Below, piece after piece: positions 27,122-63,909 of a stretch of DNA of 64,000 nt. Below the pieces are notes generated by a model that saw only the letters and a list, made by a program, of their open reading frames with translations, had not been told where the DNA came from and did no database searches. Position 1 is the stretch's first letter, and every line of letters starts with the position of its first letter. Source of the stretch: a bacterium (GTDB lineage Bacteria; Oederibacteriota; Muellerivitia; Muellerivitales; Muellerivitaceae). A program made the translations under genes and the position numbers. The stretch lies in the NCBI GenBank assembly GCA_035549195.1, contig DASZRK010000055.1:7231-71230 (forward strand), written 5' to 3'.

Positions 27122-29497
27122 TCACTGCAGGATGGTGATCTCGCTGGTCGAGGAACGGCCCGCGTCGTCCAGGCAGACCACCCGGTGCTTTCCGGGGGCC
27201 GGAACGTAGAAGACCTTCTGTTCCGGCGGGCCCGACCCCGCCAATTTCCCGTCCACCAGCCAGTAGACCTTCTTCACATTGGAGTAGACCGAGGCCAGGA
27301 GCAGGATCTTCTGGTCCTCCCGGGCGATGCCGGGCCTGAGGCTGAACTCGGTCTTGTCCTCGGGGGAATGGATGTGGGGCGCGGACCCGTCCTCGGGCCT
27401 CTGGCACCAGGAAGCGTGAGGGGGAAGGGTCTTGAGGGGATAGCCCGCCCGCCGGAGCCAGGTGGCGATCCAAGCGGGCCAGACCTCGAAGGGTTTCTCA
27501 TAACACTTACGCCCCTTCTCGCAGGCGCTGCAGACCAGCTCGCCCGTCAGGGCGTCGACCTTGCGCATCTGATGGAAGGTGCATTCCCGGGTCGAGGAGA
27601 CGTTCTTGAGGTAATAATCGGTGGTCCTTTCCGAACAGGCCTGTCCCGGGGGCGCCCCGCTCAGGGCGCAGACCTCCCGGATGCCGACGTCGTCGGGCCG
27701 GCGGAACCATCCACCCGGTTCCAATTGGTCCAAGGCCCTGAAAATATGGAAGAGAAGGGGGGCGGCCGCGGTGCCGCCCACCAGGTCCCGCGACCCTTCG
27801 CCCGTGAAATTCCCCGTCCAGACCCCGACGGTGAACCGGGAGTTATAACCGATGCTCCAGGCATCCTTGTAGCCATAGGAAGTCCCGGTCTTCCAGGCGA
27901 TCTTGGGGGCGTCGGCCAGGCTCTCCCAGGTGTCGGGGAAATCCGGGCGGTGGACGTCGGTCAGGATCTCGGAGACCAGGTAGCAGGCGCCGGGGGAGAG
28001 GATGGGGCCCAGATCCTCCCCCTCCAGGTCCTTCAGGAAAGAGGCCTTCTTCAGGTCGCCGCCCCGGGCGAGACAGCTGTAGAACTCGCAAAGCTCCACC
28101 AGGCTCACCTCGCAGGCACCCAACACGATCGGAAGACCATAGTAATAGGGATTCGGGTTCAGGCCCCGGACCCTGTCCCGGGCGAGCAGGGTGTAAAGGC
28201 CGTCGGGCCCCAGCCGATGGTTGAGGATGACCGCCGGGACGTTGAGCGATTGAGCGAGGGCGTTGCGGGCGCTGACCACCCCGGCGTATTTCCCGTCGAA
28301 GTTGGAGGGTTGGTATCCGTCGTAGGAAATGGGCACATCCTCCAGGAGGGTCCGGGGCGTGATCATGCCCTTGTCCATGGCCAGGGCGTAAAGCAGCGGC
28401 TTCAAGGTGGAACCGGGCGACCGAGAGGCCAGGGCCCCGTTGACCTGGCCCTGGTAGCGGTCGTCCTGGAAATCCCCGGACCCGACCATGGCCAGGACCT
28501 GGGCGGTCTTGTTGTCCATCACCACCACGGCGGCCTGGTGGATCTGGGAGGCGGCCAGGATCCGCAGGTGCCGCTCGGTCAGGCTCTGGCAGATGGACTG
28601 GATCCGCCGGTCCAAGGGCGTGCGGATGTCGGCCGCCCGGGGGGAGGAGGACTTGACCCAATCGGTGAAATGGGGGGCCTCGAAAGGGAACTCCCGTTCG
28701 GCCACGGGGTTCTCCTCCCGCAGGGCCAGTTTCAGGTCGTTCGGGGAAAGGGCCCCGAGGACGGCCAGCTTATGGAGGACCTGGTCCCGGCGGAAGCGGG
28801 CCGCCCCGTAATTGCGGTCCAAACGATAGCCGTTGGGGGATTTGGGGATGACCGTCAGTAACGCCGCCTGGGAATAGCTCACCCGGGAAGGCGGTTCATG
28901 GAAATAAGCGAGGCAGGCCGACCGCACCCCCACCAGGTTGCCGCCATAGGGGGCCAGGTTCAGGTAAAGTTCGAAGATCCGGTCTTTGGGAAGATGCCAT
29001 TCCAATTGGAGGGCCCGAAGCACCTCCAGGGCCTTGGAGGAATAGGTCCTCTCCTTGGGCTCCAGGAGCCGGGCGACCTGCATGGTGAGGGTGGAGCCGC
29101 CGCAGACCACCTTTCCCGCCCGGTGGTTGGTCCAGAATGCCCTGATAAGGGAGAAGGGGTTGATCCCCGGGTGCCAATAGAACCAGCGGTCCTCGTAATA
29201 GAGGATCGAGCGCCGCAGGGGTTCGGAAACATCCTCCAACCTGCATTTGAGCCGCCATTCGTTGCGGCTGTCGCTGAAGATCCGAAGGGGGACGCCTTGG
29301 GTGTCGGAGACGACCGTGGAATAGTCCTGGAGCGCCCGGTCGAGGGGGAGCGGGAAGAGCAGGTCCAGCAGCTTGAACGACAGGAGGAAGGCCAGGAAAA
29401 ACCGGGCCTTCCGGGAAGCGGCCAGGGTCTCCAGGGCGGGCCGGGCCACCGCCCAGGCCCGCCGGGACCTCTGCTTCCATTCGCGCCGCAAGGCCAA
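27122..29497 (-). CDS. pbpC: Penicillin-binding protein 1C
   Basis: Transglycosylase motifs EDRWFY.HPGINP and GGSTLTMQVAR; transpeptidase motifs SPGSTLKP, SLN, KTGTS; C-terminal BiPBP domain; adjacent to A2M. Confidence 0.93.
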   Translation of the reverse strand: MALRREWKQRSRRAWAVARPALETLAASRKARFFLAFLLSFKLLDLLFPLPLDRALQDYSTVVSDTQGVPLRIFSDSRNEWRLKCRLEDVSEPLRRSILYYEDRWFYWHPGINPFSLIRAFWTNHRAGKVVCGGSTLTMQVARLLEPKERTYSSKALEVLRALQLEWHLPKDRIFELYLNLAPYGGNLVGVRSACLAYFHEPPSRVSYSQAALLTVIPKSPNGYRLDRNYGAARFRRDQVLHKLAVLGALSPNDLKLALREENPVAEREFPFEAPHFTDWVKSSSPRAADIRTPLDRRIQSICQSLTERHLRILAASQIHQAAVVVMDNKTAQVLAMVGSGDFQDDRYQGQVNGALASRSPGSTLKPLLYALAMDKGMITPRTLLEDVPISYDGYQPSNFDGKYAGVVSARNALAQSLNVPAVILNHRLGPDGLYTLLARDRVRGLNPNPYYYGLPIVLGACEVSLVELCEFYSCLARGGDLKKASFLKDLEGEDLGPILSPGACYLVSEILTDVHRPDFPDTWESLADAPKIAWKTGTSYGYKDAWSIGYNSRFTVGVWTGNFTGEGSRDLVGGTAAAPLLFHIFRALDQLEPGGWFRRPDDVGIREVCALSGAPPGQACSERTTDYYLKNVSSTRECTFHQMRKVDALTGELVCSACEKGRKCYEKPFEVWPAWIATWLRRAGYPLKTLPPHASWCQRPEDGSAPHIHSPEDKTEFSLRPGIAREDQKILLLASVYSNVKKVYWLVDGKLAGSGPPEQKVFYVPAPGKHRVVCLDDAGRSSTSEITILQ

Positions 29498-29519
29498 AGC
29501 GATCCTCCGCCGGGTCCGG

Positions 29520-32500
29520 TTACTGGCGCAGTACGGTCACGCCGCCGGCGTCGGAGATGCTGGTGACGGCCGGGTCGTACATGGACTCCACCTTGACCGG
29601 GGGCAGTTGGAACTGGCCGGCGGTCACGGCCCGCAAGGTGTAGTAATAACGGTAGGTCTGCCCGGTGCCCAAGGGCAGGAAGAAGATCACCCGGTCATCC
29701 CGCAGGTCCAGGAAGTCGACGGGGGTCTTGCCGTTCTCCTGGGAGACCCAGGGAAGCACCTCCCGGGATTCCAGCCGTGGGTTCTCCACCTCGAAGCCGG
29801 CCGGGAGCAGGTCCACGACCGCCAGGTTCTTGTAGTCGTCCTTGGCGCCCGAGACCGTGACCTCGGCCACGATCATCTGGCCCTGGGCGACCTTGGAAAG
29901 GTCCAGGTTCCCGCCGTCCCGGTCCTTGTAGACGCGGCGCACCGAGATGTCATTGTCGTAGGAGGTCACCGGCCCGTTCCCCTGGACCACGCCGTCCGCT
30001 TCCCAGAAATAGAAGGCGGTGCCTTCGCCCTGGGTCTCGATCTCCACCTTCTGGCCGCCCATATCCTCGCCCCGCACCTCGACGGTCGATTTCGAGTCAA
30101 AGGAGCGGACCTTCTTGCCGCCGATGCGGATCTCGCCGGTGAAAGTGCCGGTGGAAAGCTTGGTGAAGGTCTTGCCCAACGCCATCAGGGCGAAGGAGGT
30201 CTCCTGGGTGTTGTACCAGCGGCCCATGCGCGAATGGGTGTTGAGGAACTTGAGGAGGGACGGGATGGCCGGGTGTTCCCCATCCAGTTCCACGTAGGCG
30301 TCCAGGAGCATGGCGGCCTCCCGGACGTCCGAGTTGAAGTAGCCGCCCGTCTCCCGTTTGCCGTCGTTGTTGGGTCTGGCGTTGGCCGGCAGGATGGACC
30401 GGGCCGTCTTGGGGTCCCCGGCGTGGATATAGGCCAGCGCCAACTGGGCGCGGGAGTAGAGGGGGAGCTGGTTGAGTTTCTGCTCCCGGAAATAGTTCAT
30501 GGTGCCCATGTCCGGATCCCCGAGGAGGGAAAGGACATAGCAGGCATAGACGCGGGTGTTCTCCCCCCAACCGTCGTAATAGGAGTAGTAATCCCGCTGC
30601 TCGTCGCCCCGGGCCACGGACCGGAGGTTGTGGGTGATGCCGTCGATGACCCGGTCGGAGACGTCATAGCCCTTGAGCTTGGCCTCGGCCAGGAAATGGG
30701 AGGCGTAAACGCTGCACCAATAGTTGCTGTAGGAGCCTCCCGGCCAGTAGCTGAAGCCGCCCCTGGAATCCATCATGGATTCGATCTTGCGGATACCCTC
30801 CCCGACGAAGTAATCCGCCGAGTTGTTCTTGAACAGGTCCGGGGCCGCCACCTTGGCCACTTCGTTGAAATAAAGGAGGGGGAAAGCGGCGGAGGTGGTC
30901 TGTTCGATGCAGCCATAGGGGTAATGCAGGAGATAGGCGAGGCCCCCCATGTAACGCATGGTCGGCAGGCCCGAAAGGACCAGGGAATAGCGGTCGGTGC
31001 CCTGGACCAGCTTGTCCGGGAGGTCGAAGGAAACGGCCTTGCCGGGCGGGACCGAGCCCGAACCGCCGAAGTTCTCGATCGGGCGCGCGGGCCGCACGGG
31101 GATGGATGTGACCTGGCTCACCGACGCTCCCAAACCGTCGGCGGTCAAGGTGATGTCGGTCGGTTCCACCCGTTCCAGGACATGGGCCTGGAAGAGGACT
31201 TGGCCCATGGAAGAGGGGCCGATCTCCACCTCGGCGCTGGCGGGACCATCGACCTGCACGGGGCCGGAGGAGGACAGGTGGACGGTGACCTTGCCCTTTT
31301 GCTTGGTGCCGTTGAAGACGCCCACGGGGATCTCGAAGGAGTCGCCCATGGCCAGGAAGCGCGGCAGGTTGGGGGTGAGCACGATGGGGGAGCGCACGAT
31401 GAGGGGCGATTCGGCTGCCCCGAAGCGGCTTCCCTTGAAGGCGACGGCCATGAGGCGCAGCTCGCCGTCGAACTGGGGCACCTGGAAGGTGACCGTGGCG
31501 TGGCCCAGCATGTTCGTCTTCACCAGACCCGACCAAAGGGCCACGGGCTTGACCCGTTTCACCTGCGGACGGGCCAGGTTCCTTTCGCGCCTGCCGTCGG
31601 AGCCGCCGGTAGGGCCCTTGCCCTTGGCGACCTCGGGAAGGACATAGGAATAAAGGTCCATAGGCACGGTCGCCAGACGGAGGGGACCGTAAAAGAAGTC
31701 ATAGGGGTCGGGGGACCGGAAATCGGTCAACTGCAGGATGCCCGAATCCACCGCGGCCAGGATGACCTGGGCCCCGGGTTTGGCGTTGACCTCGACGGTC
31801 AGGGAGGTGAGCGGCCGGATCTCGGCGGGGGCCTTCAAGCTCACCGGGATACGGTCGGCCGGCTTCGAGACCATCATGCGCACCAGGCCGAAGGCGCGGG
31901 CCGGGGCGTGGGTCTCCATCGAATCGGTCGAACGGATGAGGGTGGCGGTCACGTAGACGTTGGGTTTGAACCGCTCGGGGACGGGGATCTGGATGACCCC
32001 GGTGTTCTCCGTCAGGGTGGCGGTGGTGTACCAATAGACGTCGTCCCGCTCGACGGTGACGAGGATCTTGCCGGGGAAGGGCGAGCGGACGCGTAGTTGG
32101 GCGATATCGCCGGGCGAGAACTCGCTCTTGTCCAGGCTCAGGTCCAACTTATCGGGCTGGGCCATGGAGACCGAGGAGTAGCCCCAGCCCCAGGCGGAGA
32201 ACTCGTCGGAGGTGATGACCTGTCCGTCGGCGGAGGAGACCTCCAGCTTGAACTGGCCGTATTCGTTCACGTCCATGCCCAGGGGTTCGATCCCACCGTC
32301 CAGGTCCAGGGGGACCTGCTTGACGATCTGGAACTGGTATTCGGAGACGAAGCGGTAATGGCCGTCGTTGTCCTTGCGGTAGAGCGATTCCCAGACCTTG
32401 CGGTAAAGGGTGGCCTTGGCGGGCCCGGCCTTGAAGGGCTTGCCCTGGGGATCCAGGGAAACGATGTCGTAGCGGACCTTCCGGCCCTCGGAATCGCCGT

Positions 32501-35057
32501 ATTCGTCGCTCTTCATACGGTTGCGGAGCCCGATGTAATAGGGATAGGGGTGGAAATCCACGGTCTTGACGCCGGAGATGGCGCGGCTTCCCTCGTCCAG
32601 GACGGTCCCGACCACCTGGGCGGAGAGCAGGCCCCGGGGTTTGGCATCCGGGAGCTTGAGGGTGACGGCGAAGCCGCCCTGGGCGTCCAGGGTCCCTTGG
32701 CCGGCCTCGGTCTCGAATTCCTTGAAGTCGTTGTTGGGATCGCCGAACTTGAAGTCCGAATAGCCCTTGGGACGGAAGGCCTTGTCCGTGAAGACGGTCC
32801 GCACGGAGACCTTCTGGTTGGCGGCCGGGGCGCCGAAGAGGAAGTCGCCCTGGACATGGGCTTGCAGGCTGTCACCCAGTTGGTAGGAGTCCTTGTCGGT
32901 CTTGACCGCGACGCGGATGCGGTCCGGGATGAAGTCCTCGACGCTGAAGGAGACGGCGCCCACCTCGTTCTTTTCCCCGATGGTCAGGCTGGCCCGGTAT
33001 TTCCCCGTCTTGGCGTAGGTGGGGATGGGGATGTCCAGGTCGAAGCCCCCGTCGGACTGGGACTTGGCCATGGTCTCCAGGAAGACCTTGGATTGGGGGT
33101 CGTAGAGGGTCAGTTTCGCCGGCATGGAAGGGGGCGTGTCCAACTGGGCGGTGCGCAGGATGCCCGCCAGGTGGGCCTTGTCGCCGGGCCGATAGACGCC
33201 CCGGTCGGTGAAGAGATAGGCCTGGAGGTCCTTGGACTGGTCGCGGCCGGAGATGTCGTAGTCGGCCAGGGAGATCTCGGACGAATCGAAAAGAAGGAAG
33301 GATTCGTCGTCCCCCAGCTTGGCGGTGATGAGCAGGGGGGTCATCTTCTCCTTGTCGAAGGCCGAAAGCCCCTCGAAGACCGCCTTCCCGTCCTTGTCGG
33401 TGGTGGCATGGGCCAGGGGCTGGTTGTTGGTGCTGATGAGGGTCAATTCGACCCCGGCGAGGGAATGGAGGGTGGTCAGGGAATTGGCGAAGACCACATA
33501 GGAATCGGCGGTCTTGCGGGCGATGAGCCCGATGTCGGTGACCAGCACCCACTTGGAGTCGGTCAGTTTTCGGTTCGTGTCGTAGTCGTAATCGTCGTCC
33601 CCGCCCTCCTCGTCGTCGCCTTCCCCGGCGTCGGCCTGGTGGGGACGGCCCCCGGTCCTCAGGAAGACCCGGAAGAGGCCTTTGCGCTTGCCTTGGGCCA
33701 ATTCGCGCATGCTGTAGGCGGTGGTCACCATGGTGTTGCGGTCGCGGCTGAGCGTCACATCCTCGGTCTTGACGTGCTGGCCCAGGTTCTGGAATTGCCC
33801 CTCATAGTAGTAATAGCGGTAATAGCCGGAGGCCCCCAGGATCCGCCCGCCGAATTCCCTCAATAGATAGACCAGGTTGTTCATGAAGACCTTGTCCACC
33901 ATCACCTGGGCCTTGGAGACGTTCACCGAATTGATGGCCAGGTTCATCTCCCCGCGGCGGGGGAGGTAGAAGCCGTCGTCGGCGAAGGTGAGCATGGGTT
34001 CCAGGTCGGTGATCTCGATGTCCTTCTTGACCTCGGCGGGAAGCACGGACCCGTCGATCCCCTGCAGGCCGTCCCGGACGGTCACGTGGTAGGTCTGCCC
34101 GCCCTGGAAACGGCCCCTGAGGAAGACGGTCTGATAGGAAGCGGTGGCCGAGAACTCGACGTCGGGGCTGACCACGATGTAGTCCTTGAGGCGGGAGGTG
34201 TCGACCGGCGAGGAGAAATTCAGTCGGATGGCGATGTTCCCCGGGTTGGTATCCACCTCGGCGCTCTTGAGCTCCAGGTCCTTGGCCATTTGCGGCTCCA
34301 GGTCCTGGGTGACGGCGTGCCCCAGCCCTCCGCCGCAGCTGACACAGGCCAGGTCGCCCGTCAAGGCCACCTTCAAGTGGGCCTTGCCCTTGCGCGGTTC
34401 GATGGGTTGGGTGATGAGGGAATGGAGGCTCCCGGTGGCCAGGGTCTCGAAGGAAAAGGGGACGGTCTTTCCGTTCTCGTCCAGCACGATCACGTTCTGT
34501 ACCAGGTCCTTCTGGGCGACGGGATAGTTGAATTCCAGGCCGATCCGCACCCGGCTTTTTTCGCCCTTGGACAGGGTCCTTTCATAAAAACCGCTGACGC
34601 TCTTGACCTCGAAATCGGGGGTCTGGAAATGGAAGGTGCTGCTGCCGTCGATCTTCTTCCCGGAAACGGCGTCCTCCAGGACCTGGACGGTGTAGCGGGT
34701 GGCGGGGGCCAGGGGAACGGCGGCGGTATAGGAGAGGGTCCGGGCGTCCTTCCAAATATAAAATCCCGGGATGGGCGGATCGATGTCCATCAAATGACCC
34801 TGAAAGCGCCGGTTCAGGGCGGATTCTTCGGCGACCTTACGGTTGAACTGGATGGTGAGTTCCTGTTGGTTGACGGCCACTTGTCCGGTCGGGCTGAATT
34901 GGGAGATCCGGATCCCGGGACGGTAATGGAACAGGGTGCCCAGCGCGAGAAGGAGAAGTCCCCCAAGAAAGAGCTTCTTGCGGGTGCCCGGGTCCTTCCA
35001 GCGGATGGATCTTAGGGAGGATAGGGAACGGCCGAATAACGAAAGGACCTTTTTCAT
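29520..35057 (-). CDS. Bacterial alpha-2-macroglobulin
   Basis: About 1845 aa. Motifs TDRGVYRPG, EDFIPDR, AAVDSGILQLT, thioester PYGCIEQ, W.NTQE, DLLPAGFE.EN, RDDR, YDP. GGAG SD before ATG 35057. Confidence 0.95.
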   Translation of the reverse strand: MKKVLSLFGRSLSSLRSIRWKDPGTRKKLFLGGLLLLALGTLFHYRPGIRISQFSPTGQVAVNQQELTIQFNRKVAEESALNRRFQGHLMDIDPPIPGFYIWKDARTLSYTAAVPLAPATRYTVQVLEDAVSGKKIDGSSTFHFQTPDFEVKSVSGFYERTLSKGEKSRVRIGLEFNYPVAQKDLVQNVIVLDENGKTVPFSFETLATGSLHSLITQPIEPRKGKAHLKVALTGDLACVSCGGGLGHAVTQDLEPQMAKDLELKSAEVDTNPGNIAIRLNFSSPVDTSRLKDYIVVSPDVEFSATASYQTVFLRGRFQGGQTYHVTVRDGLQGIDGSVLPAEVKKDIEITDLEPMLTFADDGFYLPRRGEMNLAINSVNVSKAQVMVDKVFMNNLVYLLREFGGRILGASGYYRYYYYEGQFQNLGQHVKTEDVTLSRDRNTMVTTAYSMRELAQGKRKGLFRVFLRTGGRPHQADAGEGDDEEGGDDDYDYDTNRKLTDSKWVLVTDIGLIARKTADSYVVFANSLTTLHSLAGVELTLISTNNQPLAHATTDKDGKAVFEGLSAFDKEKMTPLLITAKLGDDESFLLFDSSEISLADYDISGRDQSKDLQAYLFTDRGVYRPGDKAHLAGILRTAQLDTPPSMPAKLTLYDPQSKVFLETMAKSQSDGGFDLDIPIPTYAKTGKYRASLTIGEKNEVGAVSFSVEDFIPDRIRVAVKTDKDSYQLGDSLQAHVQGDFLFGAPAANQKVSVRTVFTDKAFRPKGYSDFKFGDPNNDFKEFETEAGQGTLDAQGGFAVTLKLPDAKPRGLLSAQVVGTVLDEGSRAISGVKTVDFHPYPYYIGLRNRMKSDEYGDSEGRKVRYDIVSLDPQGKPFKAGPAKATLYRKVWESLYRKDNDGHYRFVSEYQFQIVKQVPLDLDGGIEPLGMDVNEYGQFKLEVSSADGQVITSDEFSAWGWGYSSVSMAQPDKLDLSLDKSEFSPGDIAQLRVRSPFPGKILVTVERDDVYWYTTATLTENTGVIQIPVPERFKPNVYVTATLIRSTDSMETHAPARAFGLVRMMVSKPADRIPVSLKAPAEIRPLTSLTVEVNAKPGAQVILAAVDSGILQLTDFRSPDPYDFFYGPLRLATVPMDLYSYVLPEVAKGKGPTGGSDGRRERNLARPQVKRVKPVALWSGLVKTNMLGHATVTFQVPQFDGELRLMAVAFKGSRFGAAESPLIVRSPIVLTPNLPRFLAMGDSFEIPVGVFNGTKQKGKVTVHLSSSGPVQVDGPASAEVEIGPSSMGQVLFQAHVLERVEPTDITLTADGLGASVSQVTSIPVRPARPIENFGGSGSVPPGKAVSFDLPDKLVQGTDRYSLVLSGLPTMRYMGGLAYLLHYPYGCIEQTTSAAFPLLYFNEVAKVAAPDLFKNNSADYFVGEGIRKIESMMDSRGGFSYWPGGSYSNYWCSVYASHFLAEAKLKGYDVSDRVIDGITHNLRSVARGDEQRDYYSYYDGWGENTRVYACYVLSLLGDPDMGTMNYFREQKLNQLPLYSRAQLALAYIHAGDPKTARSILPANARPNNDGKRETGGYFNSDVREAAMLLDAYVELDGEHPAIPSLLKFLNTHSRMGRWYNTQETSFALMALGKTFTKLSTGTFTGEIRIGGKKVRSFDSKSTVEVRGEDMGGQKVEIETQGEGTAFYFWEADGVVQGNGPVTSYDNDISVRRVYKDRDGGNLDLSKVAQGQMIVAEVTVSGAKDDYKNLAVVDLLPAGFEVENPRLESREVLPWVSQENGKTPVDFLDLRDDRVIFFLPLGTGQTYRYYYTLRAVTAGQFQLPPVKVESMYDPAVTSISDAGGVTVLRQ

Positions 35058-35176
35058 ATATAGAAGGCTCCTTGGCTGGATGGTCGATAGGCTGGAGGAA
35101 GGGCCTATGATAAACCTGGGCCGAAGAGGCCAGTGTAAATAAACCGGCAAAAATACATCCTTATATAAGGGGAACC

Positions 35177-35734
35177 ATGGCTTCCGCATTGACGCACGCT
35201 TTCGTTGGGTCCGTGATGGGGAAGATCATCCGTGGAAAGGACCGGATGCCACGGCGATTTTGGATCGGCCTGGCTTTAACGGCCGCTCTACCCGACCTGG
35301 ATGTGGTCTCATTTCATCTGGGGATCCCCTATGAAAGCCCCTGGGGACACCGGGGATTCACCCATTCCCTGGTCTTCGCCGCTTTCCTGGGATGGCTGAC
35401 CCTCGAACTGTTACGGCTGGGGGAAAAGCGTTTTTCGAGGAACTGGTGGATGCTGTGGGCCTGTTTTTTCCTGGCGACCGCCTCCCATGGGCTCCTGGAC
35501 GCCATGACCAATGGCGGTATGGGCATCGCCTTCTTTTGGCCCTTTCGTAACGCCCGCTATTTCCTGCCCTGGCGGCCCATCCTTGTCTCGCCGGTCGCGT
35601 TCCAAGCTTTCTTCCACCATCGCGCCTTCGCGATCCTGAAAAGCGAGTTCCTGTGGGTCTGGATCCCGGTGGTCCTGCTTTGGGTTCTCTCCGCCATTCT
35701 TCGCCGGGTCTTGGGGAGTGAAAGGCCGAAATGA
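35177..35734 (+). CDS. Membrane metal-dependent hydrolase (YdjM/YbcI family)
   Basis: Motifs LTH, LPDLD, GHRGFTHSL, SHGLLDA. Confidence 0.88.
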   Translation: MASALTHAFVGSVMGKIIRGKDRMPRRFWIGLALTAALPDLDVVSFHLGIPYESPWGHRGFTHSLVFAAFLGWLTLELLRLGEKRFSRNWWMLWACFFLATASHGLLDAMTNGGMGIAFFWPFRNARYFLPWRPILVSPVAFQAFFHHRAFAILKSEFLWVWIPVVLLWVLSAILRRVLGSERPK

Positions 35735-36199: not shown

Positions 36200-36955
36200 A
36201 TGGCCATGAAAAAAAAGAAGAACATCCAAACCTTTGAGACCGTCGCGCCCGGTGGCGCCGCCCAGGACGGCGCCAAGATCGACGTGCTGGCCTTCGGGGC
36301 CCATCCCGACGATGTCGAGATCGCCATGGGCGGCACGATCCTTTCCCTGAAGGACCGGGGCGCCCGGGTGGTCGTCTGCCACCTGACCGATGGGGAACCG
36401 ACCCCCTATGGGAACCACAAGCTCCGTTTGAAGGAAGCGGAAGCCGCCGCCCGGGTCCTGGGACTGGACGATCACCTGATCCTTCCGCTCAAGAACCGTG
36501 AACTGCAGGACACGATCCCGGCCCGCCGCAAGGTGGCCGAGGTCATGCGCCGATACCGGCCCGCCATGGTCTTTGCCCCCTATTGGGTGGACGCCCATCC
36601 GGACCATTGGGGCGGCAGCCGACTGGTGGAAGCGGCCCGCTTCTGGGCCAAACTGGTCAAGACCGACATGAAAGGGGATCCTTGGTATCCCCCGAAGTTC
36701 TATTACCACCTTTGTTCGCACCTGCGCCCGAACGTCCAGCCGGCCTTCATCGTGGATACGACCGGTTTCCAGGACCGAAAGGTCCGGGCGGTCTCCTGCT
36801 ACGAGAGCCAGTTCATCAAGAAGCCCGGGAGCCGGGCCCTGGAGTTCATCGGGGTGGCGAACCGCTATTGGGGGTCCATGATCGGGAGGGAAACGGGCGA
36901 ACCCTTCTTTTCAAAGGAAAATATCGGGGTGAACGATCCGAGGATATTGCTTTAG
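36200..36955 (+). CDS. bshB1: PIG-L/LmbE family deacetylase (BshB1-like)
   Basis: Motifs FGAHPDDVE..MGGT, R..EA..AA..LG, D.HPDH, S.YESQF. The exact substrate is unproven. Confidence 0.75.
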   Translation: MAMKKKKNIQTFETVAPGGAAQDGAKIDVLAFGAHPDDVEIAMGGTILSLKDRGARVVVCHLTDGEPTPYGNHKLRLKEAEAAARVLGLDDHLILPLKNRELQDTIPARRKVAEVMRRYRPAMVFAPYWVDAHPDHWGGSRLVEAARFWAKLVKTDMKGDPWYPPKFYYHLCSHLRPNVQPAFIVDTTGFQDRKVRAVSCYESQFIKKPGSRALEFIGVANRYWGSMIGRETGEPFFSKENIGVNDPRILL

Positions 36956-37185
36956 GGCCGGCTTAGATCCGGCGGTTCTTCTGGCGTTTGATCGGTGCCA
37001 AGGCGAGCCCCACCATCCAGAAGCCCGACATCCCCAAAAAAGCCAGGCCGTCCAGGACCAGCGTCCCCAGCATGTTCTTGATCTTGCGGCCCATGACGAA
37101 CCTCCTTCACTTTTTCAGACGGGCCAACATCCCCATTGGTTCAAGGTGCATAACCGATGCCAAGTGGCCCGGTCGGGCCGGGAAG

Positions 37186-37209
37186 AAAAGTATACGGCCG
37201 TATACTTTT
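37186..37209. promoter_or_regulatory. Perfect 24-bp palindrome, candidate operator of recA
   Basis: AAAAGTATACGGCCGTATACTTTT is its own reverse complement and ends 3 bp before the -35 box. Confidence 0.65.
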
Positions 37210-37212
37210 TTC

Positions 37213-37241
37213 TTGACGGGGCATTGGGCGGCTTTTAGGAT
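37213..37241 (+). promoter_or_regulatory. Sigma70-type recA promoter
   Basis: TTGACG (37213-37218), 17-bp spacer, TAGGAT (37236-37241). Confidence 0.75.
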
Positions 37242-37368
37242 GTGCCGCGTAGGCCTCCTACCCCGTAGGACCTACCCCGCCTTCCTGCCAAGGAAGGTGA
37301 CACCCACTACGAACCGCGTAAAAGCACGAAAAACCCGTCAAACGGGCTATAAATCAAGGAGCGATGAA

Positions 37369-38520
37369 ATGGCGAGCGAGAAACAAAAGGCGTTGGATAA
37401 CGCGATCCTGCAGATCGAGAAGGACCACGGCAAGGGCGCGATCATGAAACTGGGGGAGGCCAAGGTCCAGGACGTGAAGTCCATCTCCACGGGGGCCATC
37501 TCGGTCGATATCGCCACCGGCATCGGGGGGGTTCCCCGGGGCCGCATCGTTGAGATCTATGGACCGGAATCCTCCGGTAAGACCACCCTCACCCTCCATA
37601 TCGTCGCCGAGTGTCAAAAAGCGGGCGGGACCGCCGTGTTTATTGACGCGGAACATGCCATGGACCCGGTCTATGCCAAGAAACTGGGGGTGAACGTGGA
37701 TGAACTGCTCATCTCCCAGCCTGATTCGGCCGAAGAAGCCCTCCAGATCGCCGATACCCTCATCCGTTCCGGGGCCATCGACGTCATCGTCATCGACTCC
37801 GTGGCCGCCTTGGCCCCCAGGGCCGAGTTGGAAGGCGAGATGGGCGATGCCCACGTGGGGCTCCAGGCCCGCTTGATGAGCCAGGCCCTGCGTAAATTGA
37901 CGGCTTTGCTCTCGAAATCCAACACCAGCGCCCTTTTCATCAACCAGATCCGCGAGAAGATCGGGGTCATGTTCGGGAATCCGGAGACCACCCCAGGGGG
38001 ACGGGCCTTGAAGTTCTACTCCTCCATGCGGCTGGATGTGCGCCGGGTCGAGGCCATCAAGAGCGGGGACCAGAACATCGGGAACAAGGTGAAGGTCAAG
38101 GTGGTCAAGAACAAGACGGCCCAGCCTTTCCGGGAGGGTTTCGTCGACATCATCTTCGGGGAAGGCATCTCCAAGGAAGGTTCGCTCATCGATGTGGGCG
38201 TGGAAATGGGCATCGTGGACAAGAGCGGGACTTGGTTGAGCTTCGGGGAGACCAAGATCGGCCAGGGCCGGGACGCCGGCAAGGCTTTCTTGAAGGAACA
38301 CACCGATGTCGCCGCCCAGATCGAGAAGAGGATCAAGGAAAAGGTCGGGCTGATCCCGGCGCCGGCCCAGGCACCCGCCAAGCCTTCGGCGACGGGCTCC
38401 GCCCCTGCGGCGGCTTCGGCGGACAAGCCGGTGGCCGCGCCCACGCCCTTGAAGCCCGAACTTAAGAAGGATGCCGGACTGGTCCTGACCGAGAAGGCCA
38501 AAGTCGCCTTGCGCAAGTGA
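37369..38520 (+). CDS. recA: Recombinase RecA with long Ala/Pro/Lys-rich C-terminal tail
   Basis: AAGGAG SD; motifs [52 protein letters not shown]. Confidence 0.98.
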
Positions 38521-44212: not shown

Positions 44213-44899
44213 CTAGCGCCGGGTCGGTTCTTCCGACTTCCGGAAGGAACGTTCGAACGAGGCGGAGGCCCGTTGAAGGGCCATCTCGGCATGGACGCCC
44301 TCCGCTTGGGCCAGGCGGGTAAAGGCGAGCAGGAATTCACCGGCGGCCCTTTCTTTTCCCCGTCTTCCGGCCTTGAGGCTCTTTTGCAGGCCCTGCCAGG
44401 CCTTGGCCGCCTGTTTTTCCAGGTCCTTCTTATCCGTTGCTTTTTGCCCCTTGTTGATCTTCTCGAACATCCGCTGGGTCCTCAGCAGGGACGGGAGGGA
44501 CTTGGGGAGGCCGTCCAAGGCCGATCTCCGCTCGGGTTTTTCCTGCCGTTTCAATTCTTCCCATTTACGGTTGATGTCGGAGATCCTGCGGCTGGATTTC
44601 CCGAAGACGTGGGGATGGCGGCGGATGAGCTTGTCGCCGATACCCTTGGCCACCTCCTGGAGGTCGAAACGGCCCTTTTCCTTGGCCATTTGGGCGTGGA
44701 AGACGACCTGCAACAAGAGGTCCCCCAGTTCTTCCTGGAGGGCCTTGGGATCGTCCATGTCGATGGCGTCCAGGACCTCGTGGGCCTCTTCCAATAGGTA
44801 AGGTTTCAGGGTGCGGTGGGTCTGGCGGCGGTCCCAGGGGCAGCCGTTCCTGGATCGGAGCCGGGTCATGATATTTTCAAGACGGCGCAGATAATCCAT
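44213..44899 (-). CDS. mazG: Nucleoside triphosphate pyrophosphohydrolase MazG
   Basis: Motifs LR...GCPWD..QT, EEAHE, EELGDLLLQVVFH, RRHPHVF, WEELK. Confidence 0.93.
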   Translation of the reverse strand: MDYLRRLENIMTRLRSRNGCPWDRRQTHRTLKPYLLEEAHEVLDAIDMDDPKALQEELGDLLLQVVFHAQMAKEKGRFDLQEVAKGIGDKLIRRHPHVFGKSSRRISDINRKWEELKRQEKPERRSALDGLPKSLPSLLRTQRMFEKINKGQKATDKKDLEKQAAKAWQGLQKSLKAGRRGKERAAGEFLLAFTRLAQAEGVHAEMALQRASASFERSFRKSEEPTRR

Positions 44900-44975
44900 G
44901 CTTGCCTCCGGGGTGGGTGGAATTTACCATGCCTGGCGTCGGGAAAACCATCCCCAACAAGGGCGGAGGCGGACA

Positions 44976-46724
44976 TTGGATCTGTCTTTCTGGACCGAAC
45001 GGTTGATGAAGGTCCCCGGAGCCCAGGGGACCAAGGCGCACCTCTTGGCGCAGGGCCACACCGAACAGGAGGCGACCTTCGGCGGGGCCATCGTCGGGGC
45101 CCTGGGGATCTTCCTGGGCGTCATCCTTTTCAATTCCTTCATTTATGGGATCATCCGCGGGTTCTTCGACCAGGCCTGGGCCTATTGCCTGGAGAACCCG
45201 GTGGAAGCCACCTTGGCGGGGATCTTCGCCACCCTTCTCTTCCTGGCGGTCCTCTTCAAATGGATGGGCCATAGCTCCCAAAAGAAGATCGAGTCGGCCC
45301 AGCAAACCCGCCGGGACCGTCACCGCATGGAGGAGAAACGGGACTACCTGCGCAAGGGGGCCATGGGGAACTTCGAGGAGATATTCCGCTACTTCCTCAA
45401 GGAAACACGGCCCGACCTCGAGGTGAAGACCTGCCACGTGGTGGACAACATCCCGCGGATCCTGTTCCTGGCCCGGCGGTTCAACACCGAACTGGGCGGT
45501 GACGTGGGGAAGAACTACAACCTTTTTCGCGACGCCCTCTTCCAGGATACCTTGGACCTTCTCGGGGCCGCTTTCGACCTGGCCGAGAACATTCCCGCGG
45601 TCATCGTGGACGCCCAAATGAACTTCATCAGCGGTAAGGCCAAGTATTACGAGGGATCGGTCCTGAGCGTGAAGGCCCAGCGGGACGTCTTCCTCCACGC
45701 CCGGGGCAAGAAAACGGCCCCCTTCAAGGCCCTGACCTCCTTTGACCTACGCTACAACGACGGTATGGAGGTCAAGTCCATCCCCCAGGAGGAAAGCAAG
45801 CAGGCCCGGGTCCTGGAAAGGATCAAGGAGAACGCGCCCAGGTTGAACGTGCGTTATGAGGCGCCCAAGGCCAAGGCCGATGACGGGTGGGAGAAGCCCA
45901 AGGAGATCGCCGAGCCCGAGGTCATCCAGGAGACGACCCGGGGGAAGGAAATGAGCGCGCTGTCCCTGTCCCAATTCCAGGACCTGGTCCTCGGCGTCCT
46001 GGCCAAAATGAGCTTCGCGGTCCAAAAGGTGAAGAAGGTGCCCGGCGGGACGCTCCAGATCCAGGTGGATTTCGCCCATCCGGTGGTGGGGGGCAGTTTC
46101 CTGGTCCTGGCCCGCCAATATCCGGAGACCGCTCCGGTGCACGCCGACCTCATCCGGGAACTGGACGAAGTCACCCGCGAGGAGGCGTGCAAACGAGGCA
46201 TCTATATCGTGACCGGGCGCTATACCGAGGAGGCCCGCAACATCACCCGGAAGATGGCGGTGGACCTGGTGGACGGGGCCCGGTTGGAGGAACTCGTCGC
46301 GGGCCCGCCCTATGACGGACGCTGGACCTTCCGGATCGTGGATGAGAAGGGGGTGGTCCAGGACCTGTCCCGGATGCCCCTCTTGAGCTTCGAGAAGGAA
46401 ACGGACCTTTTCTTGAAAAGCATGGGGTTCCGCGTGGAGAAGATCCGGCGCCAGCCGGGAGGGTCCGTCGTGGCCGTGGCCCAATATCCCCACCCGGTGG
46501 TCGGGGGCAAGTTCTGCGTGATGGCCAAGCAATTCCAGGCGAGCGAGACCGTTTCCCCGGAGTTCGTCAGCGAGATGAGCCATGTGATGAAGGCGGAGTT
46601 CTGCGACCGGGGCTTGTTGATGGTGACGACGGCCATCGGCCAGGAGGCCCGGGCCTTGGCCCGTTTCTCGAACGTGGACCTGGTGGACCGGAACACCTGG
46701 GAGAACCTGCGGCGCCAGATCTGA
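44976..46724 (+). CDS. Membrane-anchored protein with two tandem Mrr-type restriction-endonuclease-like domains
   Basis: GGAGG SD 6 nt before TTG 44976; two N-terminal TMs; two internal repeats (F...........MGF.V.K, HPVVGG.F...A(R/K)Q(Y/F), RG..V.T, VDLVD). Confidence 0.75.
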   Translation: MDLSFWTERLMKVPGAQGTKAHLLAQGHTEQEATFGGAIVGALGIFLGVILFNSFIYGIIRGFFDQAWAYCLENPVEATLAGIFATLLFLAVLFKWMGHSSQKKIESAQQTRRDRHRMEEKRDYLRKGAMGNFEEIFRYFLKETRPDLEVKTCHVVDNIPRILFLARRFNTELGGDVGKNYNLFRDALFQDTLDLLGAAFDLAENIPAVIVDAQMNFISGKAKYYEGSVLSVKAQRDVFLHARGKKTAPFKALTSFDLRYNDGMEVKSIPQEESKQARVLERIKENAPRLNVRYEAPKAKADDGWEKPKEIAEPEVIQETTRGKEMSALSLSQFQDLVLGVLAKMSFAVQKVKKVPGGTLQIQVDFAHPVVGGSFLVLARQYPETAPVHADLIRELDEVTREEACKRGIYIVTGRYTEEARNITRKMAVDLVDGARLEELVAGPPYDGRWTFRIVDEKGVVQDLSRMPLLSFEKETDLFLKSMGFRVEKIRRQPGGSVVAVAQYPHPVVGGKFCVMAKQFQASETVSPEFVSEMSHVMKAEFCDRGLLMVTTAIGQEARALARFSNVDLVDRNTWENLRRQI

Positions 46725-55956: not shown

Positions 55957-56408
55957 ACTACCTCTATTTCTGGATCGCGACCTTCCTGGGGGTCGGAAAA
56001 CTTCCGAAGGCTCCCGGGACCTGGGCGTCCCTGGTGGCGGCCATCCTTTTCTACCCTTTGATCGAAACTCCTTGGGTCCTGGGAGGCTTATTGGCCGGCA
56101 TCTTCTTCGTCGGGGTCCTGGCCTGCGACGGCTACTCCAAGGGCCTGAAGGACCCGGACCCTTCCTCCGCCGTCATCGACGAGGTCCTGGGGATGGGGAT
56201 TGCGATGCTGGCCATCCCCAAGGCTTGGCCCTATGTGGTCATGGCTTTCATCCTGTTCCGTCTTTTCGACATCTGGAAGCCCTTCCCGATCCGGCGTTTG
56301 GAGAAGCTTCCCGGAGGATGGGGCATCATGGCCGATGACCTGATGGCGGGACTTTATGCCCGGCTTTGGGTCCAGATCGGCCTTTGGACCATCTATTGGA
56401 TCCAATGA
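55953..56408 (+). CDS. pgpA: Phosphatidylglycerophosphatase A
   Basis: Motifs G..PKAPGTW.S, DP...VIDEV.G, FRLFDIWKP.PI, GG.GIM.DDL.AG. ATG 55953 overlaps the pgsA stop. Confidence 0.93.
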   Translation: MNYLYFWIATFLGVGKLPKAPGTWASLVAAILFYPLIETPWVLGGLLAGIFFVGVLACDGYSKGLKDPDPSSAVIDEVLGMGIAMLAIPKAWPYVVMAFILFRLFDIWKPFPIRRLEKLPGGWGIMADDLMAGLYARLWVQIGLWTIYWIQ

Positions 56409-56430
56409 TGGATTCCCACGGGGGCCTTCC

Positions 56431-57690
56431 TTGAACGCTGAGATCGTCGCCATCGGGACCGAACTCCTTTTGGGCCAGAACACGGACACCAATTCGGGCT
56501 GGATCGCCCGGGAATTGGCCTTGATGGGCATCGATGTCTTCGGGTTCCAAGCGGTCGGGGACAATGAAAAGCGCCTGGAGGCGGCCCTCAAGCTGGCCTG
56601 TGAGAGGGGCCCCATCGTGATCGCGACCGGCGGGCTCGGCCCCACGGTGGATGACGTGACCCGCAAGGTCGCCGCCCGGTTGGCGGGCAAGCAACTGGTC
56701 TTCCATGACCATCTGGCCAAGGCCATCGAGGAACGTTTCGCCCGGTTCCGCCCCGGAAAGCCTTTTCCCAAAGCGAACCTGAACCAGGCTTTCCTGCCCC
56801 AGGGGGCCACGGTCATCCCCAATGCCAACGGCACGGCGCCGGGGTTCATCGTGAAGGTCGGGAAGGCCCATTTGGCCTGCCTGCCGGGTGTGCCTTTCGA
56901 GATGAAGGCCATGTTCGAGGAGACCTTGAAACCCTTCCTCAAGGGGCTGGGGCCCACGGGGTCCATCATCAAATCCCGGGTTTTCCGCACCACGGGGATC
57001 GACGAATCGGCCTTGAACGAGAAGATCAGGGACCTCTTCGAGGGTTCGACCAATCCCACCATCGGGGTCTTGGCCCATTGGGAAGGGGTGGATATTCGCC
57101 TGACGGCCAAGGAGGAGAATGAGGCCAAGGCCGATCTTCTGATCGAGGCGCTGGGAAAGAACCTGACCACCCGCTTGCCCAATTTCATCTATGGCTGGGA
57201 CAAGGATGACCTGGAGACCATCGTGGGGCGGATGTTGACCACCCGGAACATGACCTTGGCCACGGCCGAATCCTGCAGCGGCGGCTTGATTTCCCATCGG
57301 ATCACCCAGGTCCCGGGAAGCTCCACCTATTTCCTGCGCGGTTACGTGGTCTATAGCAACCGGGCCAAGGAGCAGGCCCTGGGGGTGAGCGCTTCTTTGA
57401 TCGAGAAAAAGGGGGCCGTGAGCCGGGAAGTGGCGGAAGCCCTGGCGTTGGGCGCCCGGAAAGCCGCGGGAAGCGACCTAGCCCTTTCCACGACAGGTAT
57501 CGCCGGTCCCGGGGGAGGGAGCGCTGAAAAACCGGTCGGCTTGGTCCACATCGCCTTGGCCGATGACCAAGGTGCCCAATCCTTCGAGTTCCGGTTCACA
57601 GGGGACCGGAGTATCGTCAAGAAGCGCACCAGCCAGGCGGCCTTGGAGATCCTGCGCCGTTATTGCCTGGGGCTTCCTTACCGGGATTGA
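56431..57690 (+). CDS. cinA: Competence/damage-inducible protein A (molybdopterin-binding domain plus NMN deamidase)
   Basis: Motifs IGTELLLG...DTN, GGLGPT.DD.T, GTAPG, LPGVP.EM, AESCSGG, YSN..K, TTGIAGPGGG...KPVG. Confidence 0.93.
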   Translation: MNAEIVAIGTELLLGQNTDTNSGWIARELALMGIDVFGFQAVGDNEKRLEAALKLACERGPIVIATGGLGPTVDDVTRKVAARLAGKQLVFHDHLAKAIEERFARFRPGKPFPKANLNQAFLPQGATVIPNANGTAPGFIVKVGKAHLACLPGVPFEMKAMFEETLKPFLKGLGPTGSIIKSRVFRTTGIDESALNEKIRDLFEGSTNPTIGVLAHWEGVDIRLTAKEENEAKADLLIEALGKNLTTRLPNFIYGWDKDDLETIVGRMLTTRNMTLATAESCSGGLISHRITQVPGSSTYFLRGYVVYSNRAKEQALGVSASLIEKKGAVSREVAEALALGARKAAGSDLALSTTGIAGPGGGSAEKPVGLVHIALADDQGAQSFEFRFTGDRSIVKKRTSQAALEILRRYCLGLPYRD

Positions 57691-62676: not shown

Positions 62677-63909
62677 ATGCAGGTCTTCATCATTGCGAAC
62701 CTCGTCCTGAGCATGGCCTTGTTGGTCCTGTTCTTTTTGGGGCGCAAAGGCGGCTCGGATCCCCAGGGGCGGGAACTCGAGAAGGGTTTGGGATCCCTGG
62801 CCCGGGACCTGGAACGCTTGGAGAAGGTCTTGAAAGATGAGATGGCGCGCGGCCGGGAGGAAACGGGGAACCGTGAAAGGGCCGCCCGGGACGAGATGGG
62901 CCAGCAGTTCCAGAACATCGTCCGGGTCAACGAAGAGAAGCTCGAGTCCATCCGCCTGACCTTGGAGAGGCTGCTGAACGGACTCCAGGAGGAGAATGCC
63001 AAGAAGCTGGACGAGATGCGGATGGTGGTGGACGAGAAACTGCAGTCCACCCTGGAAAAACGGCTGACCGAGTCCTTCCGCCAGGTCAGCGACCGGTTGG
63101 AGCGGGTCCATCAGGGCCTGGGCGAGATGCAGAGCCTGGCTTCCAGCGTGGGGGACCTGAAGGCCGTCCTGACCAACGTCAAAACCCGCGGGACCTGGGG
63201 TGAGGTGCAGTTGGAGGCGTTGCTTTCCCAGGTGCTTTCCCCGGCCCAATATGCCAAGAATGTGCAGACCAAGAAGGACAGCGGGGACCGGGTCGAGTTC
63301 GCCATTCGGTTGCCGGGCCGTGGGGAGCAGGATGATGAGGTCCTGTTGCCGATCGATGCCAAATTCCCCGTGGAGGACCATCAGCGCCTGATGGCCGCCC
63401 TGGAGAAGGGGGACGGGGCCCAGGCGGAGGAAATGGCCAAGAACCTCGTGAATCGGCTCAAGAGCGAGGCCCGGGCCATCAAGGAAAAATACCTGGATCC
63501 TCCCGCGACCACCGATTTCGGGATCCTTTTCCTTCCGACAGAAGGGCTTTATGCGGAGGTCCTGCGTCAACCCGGTCTGGTCGAAGAACTCCAAAGGGAC
63601 CATCGGATCGTGGTGACCGGGCCCACCACCCTGACCGCCATCCTGAACAGCCTCCAGCTCGGTTTCCGGACCCTGGCCATCGAGAAAAGGACGAGCGAGG
63701 TTTGGGCCCTCCTGGGGACCGTGAAGAAGGAATTCGGCCTTTTCGCCGGTATCCTGGAAAAGACCCAAAAAAAGCTCCAGGAAGCCAGTCATACCATCGA
63801 GGATGCCGCCAAAAAGACCCGGACCATCGAAAGGAAGCTCAAGGGGGTGGAAGGAATCCAGGGCAATGGGTCAGAAGCTTTGGAAGAGGAGCCGGCCCAG
63901 GGTAATTGA
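62677..63909 (+). CDS. rmuC: DNA recombination protein RmuC
   Basis: Motifs N.KTRG.WGEVQL, LPIDAKFP, YL.PP.TTDF..LFLP.EGLYAE, GPTTL.A.L.SLQ.GF.TLAI.KR. Confidence 0.95.
   Translation: MQVFIIANLVLSMALLVLFFLGRKGGSDPQGRELEKGLGSLARDLERLEKVLKDEMARGREETGNRERAARDEMGQQFQNIVRVNEEKLESIRLTLERLLNGLQEENAKKLDEMRMVVDEKLQSTLEKRLTESFRQVSDRLERVHQGLGEMQSLASSVGDLKAVLTNVKTRGTWGEVQLEALLSQVLSPAQYAKNVQTKKDSGDRVEFAIRLPGRGEQDDEVLLPIDAKFPVEDHQRLMAALEKGDGAQAEEMAKNLVNRLKSEARAIKEKYLDPPATTDFGILFLPTEGLYAEVLRQPGLVEELQRDHRIVVTGPTTLTAILNSLQLGFRTLAIEKRTSEVWALLGTVKKEFGLFAGILEKTQKKLQEASHTIEDAAKKTRTIERKLKGVEGIQGNGSEALEEEPAQGN

Follow-up and report, generated by a model that had tools for sequence, protein, structure and literature searches.

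The recA gene in the 64-kb stretch of bacterial DNA analysed here (the window) is preceded by a perfect 24-bp palindrome, AAAAGTATACGGCCGTATACTTTT (positions 37186-37209, no strand assigned), and the locus raises the question of whether this sequence controls recA and, if so, which protein reads it. The palindrome is AT-rich against GC-rich surroundings (window G+C 57-65%), and its symmetry is broken on either side by G37185 and T37210. On its 3' side it is followed by TTC (37210-37212), the -35 hexamer TTGACG (37213-37218, + strand), a 17-nt spacer and the -10 hexamer TAGGAT (37236-37241, + strand), and a consensus scan identified TTGACG-N17-TAGGAT as the sole sigma-70-like promoter between positions 36900 and 37450. 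The first-pass annotation of this DNA, which had described a perfect AT-rich 24-bp palindrome 3 bp upstream of that promoter, is confirmed by the sequence in this respect. No other perfect palindrome of at least 20 bp occurs in the window, at up to three mismatches the pattern AAGTATAC-N4-GTATACTT was matched once in the window but in none of 100 shuffles, and the only two GTATAC hexamers in the 64 kb, where ~8.7 are expected from base composition, are the two arms of the palindrome. On these three grounds a chance origin is excluded.

The recA gene itself (37369-38520, + strand, with its ATG at 37369) codes for a protein of 383 aa carrying the RecA Pfam domains. Transcription is predicted from the position of the -10 hexamer to start near 37248, which would place the centre of the operator core ~50.5 bp upstream of the start. 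A near-identical contig of run X8 starts at ~37256, a weak hint for the transcription start. The RNA runs contained only distant relatives and no transcription start could be read from them. The putative 5' leader (37242-37368, + strand, 127 nt) includes an AAGGAG ribosome-binding site and hairpins in common with the related locus L089, the segments that pair in both the window (37250-37350) and L089 (9900-9990) being GTAGG...CCTAC and CCTTCC...GGAAGG. A small hairpin, CCCGTCAAACGGG, directly precedes the ribosome-binding site in the window leader, and the recA leaders of other relatives are shorter or unrelated. The C-terminal tail of RecA (38350-38520) comprises ~55 residues and is rich in Ala, Pro and Lys; leaving fragments out, RecA proteins of the clade measure 357 to 421 aa, and this tail may vary in length.

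About 83 close relatives of this RecA, sharing 76-91% identity and derived from soil and other metagenomes, were found, below which identity falls sharply to 69%. In the seven relatives with gene tables the gene order is CSD, PIG-L, recA, AsmA, usually MFS, Metallophos, MazG and usually an Mrr-like gene. Among 81 out-group loci, the recA-asmA pair is found only in L002 (candidate division FCPU426) and L336 (GCA_964604705.1), and this common gene order suggests that the lineage, an uncultured soil group, is probably a relative of FCPU426. Both of the latter loci carry a different dyad, AAAAYGYTT-N7-AAGYRTTTT (L002:2895-2925 and L336:5898-5925), just downstream of the recA -10 hexamer of a TTGACA-N17-TAGAAT/TACAAT promoter, and the sister lineages thus seem to have come to differ in their recA operator. 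Elsewhere in the window, a bacterial alpha-2-macroglobulin of 1889 aa adjoins a PBP1C-type penicillin-binding protein (27122-35189, - strand), a phosphate-uptake cluster (Pst/PhoU/PhoBR) occupies the remainder of the left half, and genes for biotin and fatty-acid synthesis are clustered in the right half.

Orthologous recA promoters were obtained from 13 lineage genomes, eight through protein look-ups and five through a metagenome pattern scan, and all 13 contain [A/G]GTATAC-N4-GTAT[A/T]C upstream of recA. In the window, the conserved operator core delimited by the ortholog alignment and the position-specific scoring matrix (PSSM) is AGTATAC-GGCC-GTATACT (37189-37206, no strand assigned), in which a variable 4-bp spacer separates two 7-bp half-sites, and a conserved T-tract linker, TTTTTTC (37206-37212, + strand), leads from this core to the -35 hexamer. 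When the 11 non-redundant sequences were aligned on the palindromic site, identity amounted to 98% in the operator arms, 61% in the N4 spacer and 44-49% in the flanks, with 46% in the 40 bp upstream, 84% in the T-tract and -35, 49% in the promoter spacer and 73% in the -10 zone. TTGAC is retained in ten of the 13 promoters and TTTAGGAT is retained at the -10 position. The N4 spacer occurs as GGCC, AGCC, AGGG, GGTT, GCCT, GAGT, GGCT and AGCT, favouring R at its first base and Y at its last. Judged from this alignment, the pattern is a textbook phylogenetic footprint, in which the operator, -35 and -10 are kept and the rest drifts.

The palindromic motif is absent from all 80 out-group recA loci, so that conservation upstream of recA orthologs, one of two tests which the first-pass annotation had set for its proposal in advance, was found in 13 of 13 lineage genomes and in none of these out-group loci. 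A GAAC-N4-GTTC-type box lies within 300 bp upstream of recA in 44 of these 80 loci, 29 times in its exact form and otherwise as one of four listed one-mismatch variants, with the gene start taken as the alignment start and no chance expectation computed for the loose pattern. This frequency suggests that lineage-specific dyads upstream of recA are the rule. When 254 kb of lineage DNA were scored with the PSSM, the recA sites attained 26-38 bits and everything else stayed below 10 bits, and a metagenome scan with AGTATAC-NSSN-GTATACT returned at least five lineage matches, with five out of five among the matches listed located at recA. Of the 22 GTATAC copies in 239 kb of lineage DNA (L081-L089, L261 and L319), 20 belong to operator arms; since further TA-rich palindromic hexamers are scarce as well, the rarity of GTATAC need not mean a restriction system. 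The window further encodes YdjM (35177-35734), MazG (44213-44899, - strand), an Mrr-like nuclease-domain protein (44898-46724), CinA (56356-57690) and RmuC (62677-63909), and some of these genes are damage-inducible in other bacteria. No dyad was found at cinA, rmuC, mazG, ydjM or the Mrr-like gene in the lineage DNA searched; the 254 kb include no uvrA, ruvAB, dinB/imuAB, ssb or recN. It is highly probable that the palindrome is a functional regulator-binding site for recA and a conserved cis-regulatory site.

Such a site could act as DNA or through the RNA copied from it. When folded as RNA, the palindrome in the window can form a hairpin of -14.8 kcal/mol (z = -3.9) that is followed by U's. 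This hairpin, the AT-rich DNA at -40 to -60 and a sigma-54-like promoter ~35 bp away on the opposite strand would be compatible with a structural element that has no specific regulator, be it an UP-like AT-rich element, a hairpin that terminates transcription of the PIG-L gene lying upstream, or a site that serves the divergent promoter from upstream. Folding of the orthologues, however, yielded only -3.6 to -6.6 kcal/mol, and in L085 and L087 (both -3.6 kcal/mol, z about 0) the right arm is altered to GTATTC without a compensating change. An intrinsic terminator or structured RNA was rejected on account of the stem energy that is not kept and these one-sided changes. Rfam contained no match to the palindrome region, and the flanking genes in the window both point away from it. 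Arms that are letter-perfect around a variable spacer rich in G and C are a poor fit with an UP element. The sigma-54-like promoter, TGGCAT-CGGTT-ATGCA (TGGCAT-N5-ATGCA; 37147-37162, - strand), has the canonical GG/GC spacing and precedes, by ~45 nt, a 43-aa membrane ORF (36963-37094, - strand) that has a ribosome-binding site and is divergent from recA. This block occurs only in the four genomes with the 43-aa ORF, namely the window, L081, L089 and L261, and none was found in the recA upstream regions of nine of the 13 genomes (directly checked in L082, L083, L085, L087 and L088), although the palindrome is kept in all 13, which argues against a role as an upstream site for the divergent promoter. 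A structural element is accordingly a very improbable explanation. The unconserved hairpin, the letter-perfect arms and the retention of the site in nine genomes where no divergent small gene was seen point to selection on the sequence rather than on pairing. The palindrome is predicted to be a protein-binding DNA site, and a dimeric helix-turn-helix protein would be expected to read two 7-bp half-sites with this 10-bp separation.

Twelve published damage-response motifs were compared with the recA intergenic region at up to one mismatch, including CTGT-N8-ACAG, GTTC-N7-GTTC, TTAC-N3-GTAA, TGTTC-N4-GAACA, CTAA-N5-TTAG and the RecA-NDp motif TGTCGG-N8-TANNNT, and none matched except GGTT-N10-AACC. 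This Geobacter-type match (37138-37155) was rejected as a LexA box or recA operator, as it coincides with the minus-strand sigma-54-like promoter and is absent where the 43-aa ORF is absent. The Cheo box GAAC-N4-GTTC likewise has no match with up to one mismatch in 37095-37368, where the site reads ATAC-N4-GTAT. The cyanobacterial LexA box, RGTAC-N3-DGTWCB, resembles the palindrome in being an N4-type dyad in which GTAC and ATAC differ by one letter per half-site, but its outer letters differ and it too is without a match at up to one mismatch in the recA intergenic region. LexA motifs are documented for the Balneolaeota (TTACACATATTTTWTACATA; PMC7739468) and the Bacteroidetes (CTAA-N5-TTAG and GGA-N5-TCC; PMC8565304), while GAAC-N4-GTTC is the LexA consensus of Gram-positive bacteria (PMC4234289), and none of the Balneolaeota, Bacteroidetes and classical motifs in these three papers resembles the recA palindrome. 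As in the Balneolaeota and Bacteroidetes studies, a newly sequenced lineage with a conserved motif of its own was approached here by footprinting of orthologous core SOS promoters, but those studies covered the promoter of the regulator and several SOS genes and included in vitro binding, whereas the present footprint covers recA promoters only. No description of a TATAC-N4-GTATA motif was found in the literature, papers on the LexA motifs of Verrucomicrobia and Patescibacteria lying outside the comparison. Taken literally, the original statement that no known SOS box is matched by the palindrome holds at up to one mismatch, but the AC-N4-GT format, the R..Y spacer and the position are those of the Cheo box.

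The Cheo box of Bacillales recA promoters, CGAAC-N4-GTTCG, is taken here as the site bound by LexA (DinR) in Firmicutes and Actinobacteria, and in its Gram-positive consensus, CGAACRNRYGTTYC, the spacer has R as first and Y as last base. The recA promoters of Bacillus, Paenibacillus and Virgibacillus among the out-group loci served as Bacillales controls. In these, an A-tract is followed by CGAAT-N4-GTTCG, a T-rich linker of 7-10 nt and TTGGCA, as in Bacillus (A-tract, CGAATAAATGTTCG, ATTTTTA, TTGGCA) and Virgibacillus (GAACATTTATTC, GTTCTTTTC, TTGGCA). The lineage promoters run in the same order through an A-tract, TATAC-N4-GTATA, an 8-nt linker (CTTTTTTC) and TTGAC, or, when set side by side with the controls, A-tract, ATAC-N4-GTAT, ACTTTTTTC and TTGAC. 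The distance from the AC-N4-GT core to the -35 is 9 nt in the lineage and 8-10 nt in Bacillales. The two elements therefore have in common a 14-bp inverted repeat with a 4-bp R..Y spacer and an invariant AC...GT core, a location upstream of recA, a preceding A-tract and a T-rich linker of similar length before the -35. They differ in the half-site, which is (AG)TATAC rather than (C)GAAC, so that two of the four core letters in each half-site are changed, and in the lineage each half-site is conserved over 7 bp, G and C predominate in the spacer and no LexA is linked to the site. On balance, the recA palindrome looks like a derivative of the Cheo type and not like something unrelated.

The Cheo box upstream in Bacillales recA promoters is a repressor site, and its similar position there speaks against the possibility, also raised in the first-pass annotation, that the palindrome serves an activator bound upstream of the -35, such as a competence- or damage-responsive one. 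That possibility would agree with the imperfect -10 hexamer, TAGGAT, and with the placement of the site, which in ten of the 13 promoters lies wholly upstream of the -35, with its centre near -50.5, and ends 7 nt before a near-consensus -35. With TTGAC(A/G/T) and a 17-nt spacer, however, the promoter should fire unaided, and no activator is needed. In three divergent promoters, furthermore, the placement differs: in L083 and L250 the site appears to overlap TATACA(-35)-N17-TATAGT/TACAGT, and in L087 it seems to fall inside TTGAAT-N17-TATTCT, these hexamers having been read by eye rather than scanned; where the site appears over the -35, spacer or -10 in this way, an activator would block the promoter. 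Activation is thus a weaker reading and is regarded as improbable, and the near-consensus -35 and the apparent overlaps favour a repressor instead. A second, degenerate copy of the site is located 16 or 21 bp upstream in L082 and in L083/L250. These tandem copies fit cooperative dimers and would also suit a repressor. The palindrome is very probably a repressor docking site controlling recA.

The identity of the repressor is less readily deduced, as the same palindrome recurs in unrelated organisms. An identical 18-bp AGTATAC-N4-GTATACT coincides with the start of a TetR-family gene, or lies shortly before it, in two contigs of high GC content (L228:1138-1155 and L284:3396-3413) and is found 38-71 nt upstream of genes for PaaX_M-domain proteins in two others (L266:8339-8356 and L287:500-517). 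These palindromes are presumably the operators of the adjoining regulators, and unlike the lineage site they sit at the regulator's own gene and not at recA. The sequence alone consequently neither names a protein family nor points to LexA. The palindrome also occurs at L210:3402 and L226:403, two unrelated metagenome contigs, and an extended version, CACATT-AGTATACGGCCGTATACT-AATG, is similar in three unrelated contigs. The metagenome pattern matches were dominated by 10-bp tandem repeat arrays, (AGTATACTGC)n, which are unrelated to the window, often lie beside a conserved flank, TGGTGGAGGAACGCGCGCAGCGTCC, and occur in many JGI contigs from few samples, including L213, L215, L225, L227, L230 and L234.

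A dyad of this kind was also found in a viral contig of 63.6 kb (L144/L330), where it lies exactly between the -35 and -10 of a promoter, TTGACA-GTATACGCATGTATACTT-TAGGAT (L144:3074-3103, equivalent to L330:7963-7992), upstream of a DUF932 gene. The same contig encodes a 78-aa protein that consists of a LexA DNA-binding domain only (L144:5112-5348, equivalent to L330:10001-10237) and has its place among some 20 short phage proteins of one family; an exhaustive search also returned proteins with two LexA DNA-binding domains in tandem. A link between this phage and the lineage was dropped, as the site is degenerate in sister phages and its tetranucleotide usage is no more than ordinarily similar to that of the window (r = 0.48). 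The viral LexA-domain lead was likewise abandoned, since the nearest full-length relatives are without the catalytic Ser/Lys. Word-based and exhaustive searches for a lineage LexA with the phage LexA DNA-binding domain gave no usable candidate among the matches listed.

The resemblance in format and position to the Bacillales Cheo box argues for a LexA-type SOS operator, at which recA would be repressed by a LexA with altered specificity, and this is judged the best explanation, somewhat more probable than not. A tblastn search of 254 kb of lineage DNA nevertheless revealed no lexA or S24-peptidase gene in the window or any lineage locus, and no second site was detected in the same 254 kb with the PSSM, which counts against LexA, given that its hallmark is a regulon. 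The different dyad downstream of the -10 in L002 and L336, which have the same recA-asmA order, also counts against it, as do the two of four positions per half-site that depart from the Cheo box. A non-LexA regulator, for example of the TetR, PaaX, XRE/ImmR or WYL type, that controls recA alone or a very small regulon would account for a site present only at recA in the 254 kb and in all five lineage matches listed from the metagenome scan, and would agree with the unusually perfect dyad of 14-18 bp, which is typical of local regulators, as well as with the occurrence of the same palindrome at TetR and PaaX-like regulator genes elsewhere. There are precedents in EppR, a TetR-like repressor of damage genes in Acinetobacter (PMC12242105), and in the S24 regulators of Bacteroidetes with other DNA-binding domains (PMC8565304). 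However, no TetR- or PaaX-like homologue was found in the 254 kb by tblastn, the lineage loci with gene tables show no regulator gene of any kind in linkage with recA, nor does a TetR/PaaX-like gene adjoin recA there, and the architecture of the promoter parallels the Cheo-box arrangement of Bacillales. A non-LexA regulator is the main rival but rather less likely, and this includes the case of a dedicated regulator of recA whose near-perfect 18-bp operator would be unique in the genome. The proposal of a divergent LexA or another DNA-damage regulator, as originally put forward, is still the best reading: conservation at recA and the Cheo-like architecture lend it partial support, and the 254 kb offer neither a lexA gene nor a second site in its favour.

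Under the LexA reading, a dimeric helix-turn-helix repressor of recA, most likely the LexA of the lineage, would recognise TATAC-N4-GTATA instead of GAAC-N4-GTTC, with one AGTATAC half-site contacted by each monomer and both half-sites, 10 bp apart, presented on the same helical face. Occupying roughly -58 to -43, where it would abut the T-tract and the -35, such a protein would deny RNA polymerase access to a promoter that is otherwise strong, and following DNA damage RecA-stimulated self-cleavage of LexA would free the recA promoter. LexA is unusual in that its recognition sequence has changed many times, and each new motif traces a co-change of protein and operator. If the repressor is LexA, TATAC-N4-GTATA would mark a further departure, and a new one, from the Gram-positive GAAC-N4-GTTC, made in a lineage that soil metagenomes alone have revealed, and would provide a ready search pattern with which the damage response of this lineage may be mapped from metagenome-assembled genomes alone. 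If it is not, the palindrome would be an example of LexA-independent control of recA, by which a little-explored bacterial branch would switch its response to DNA damage or its recombination.
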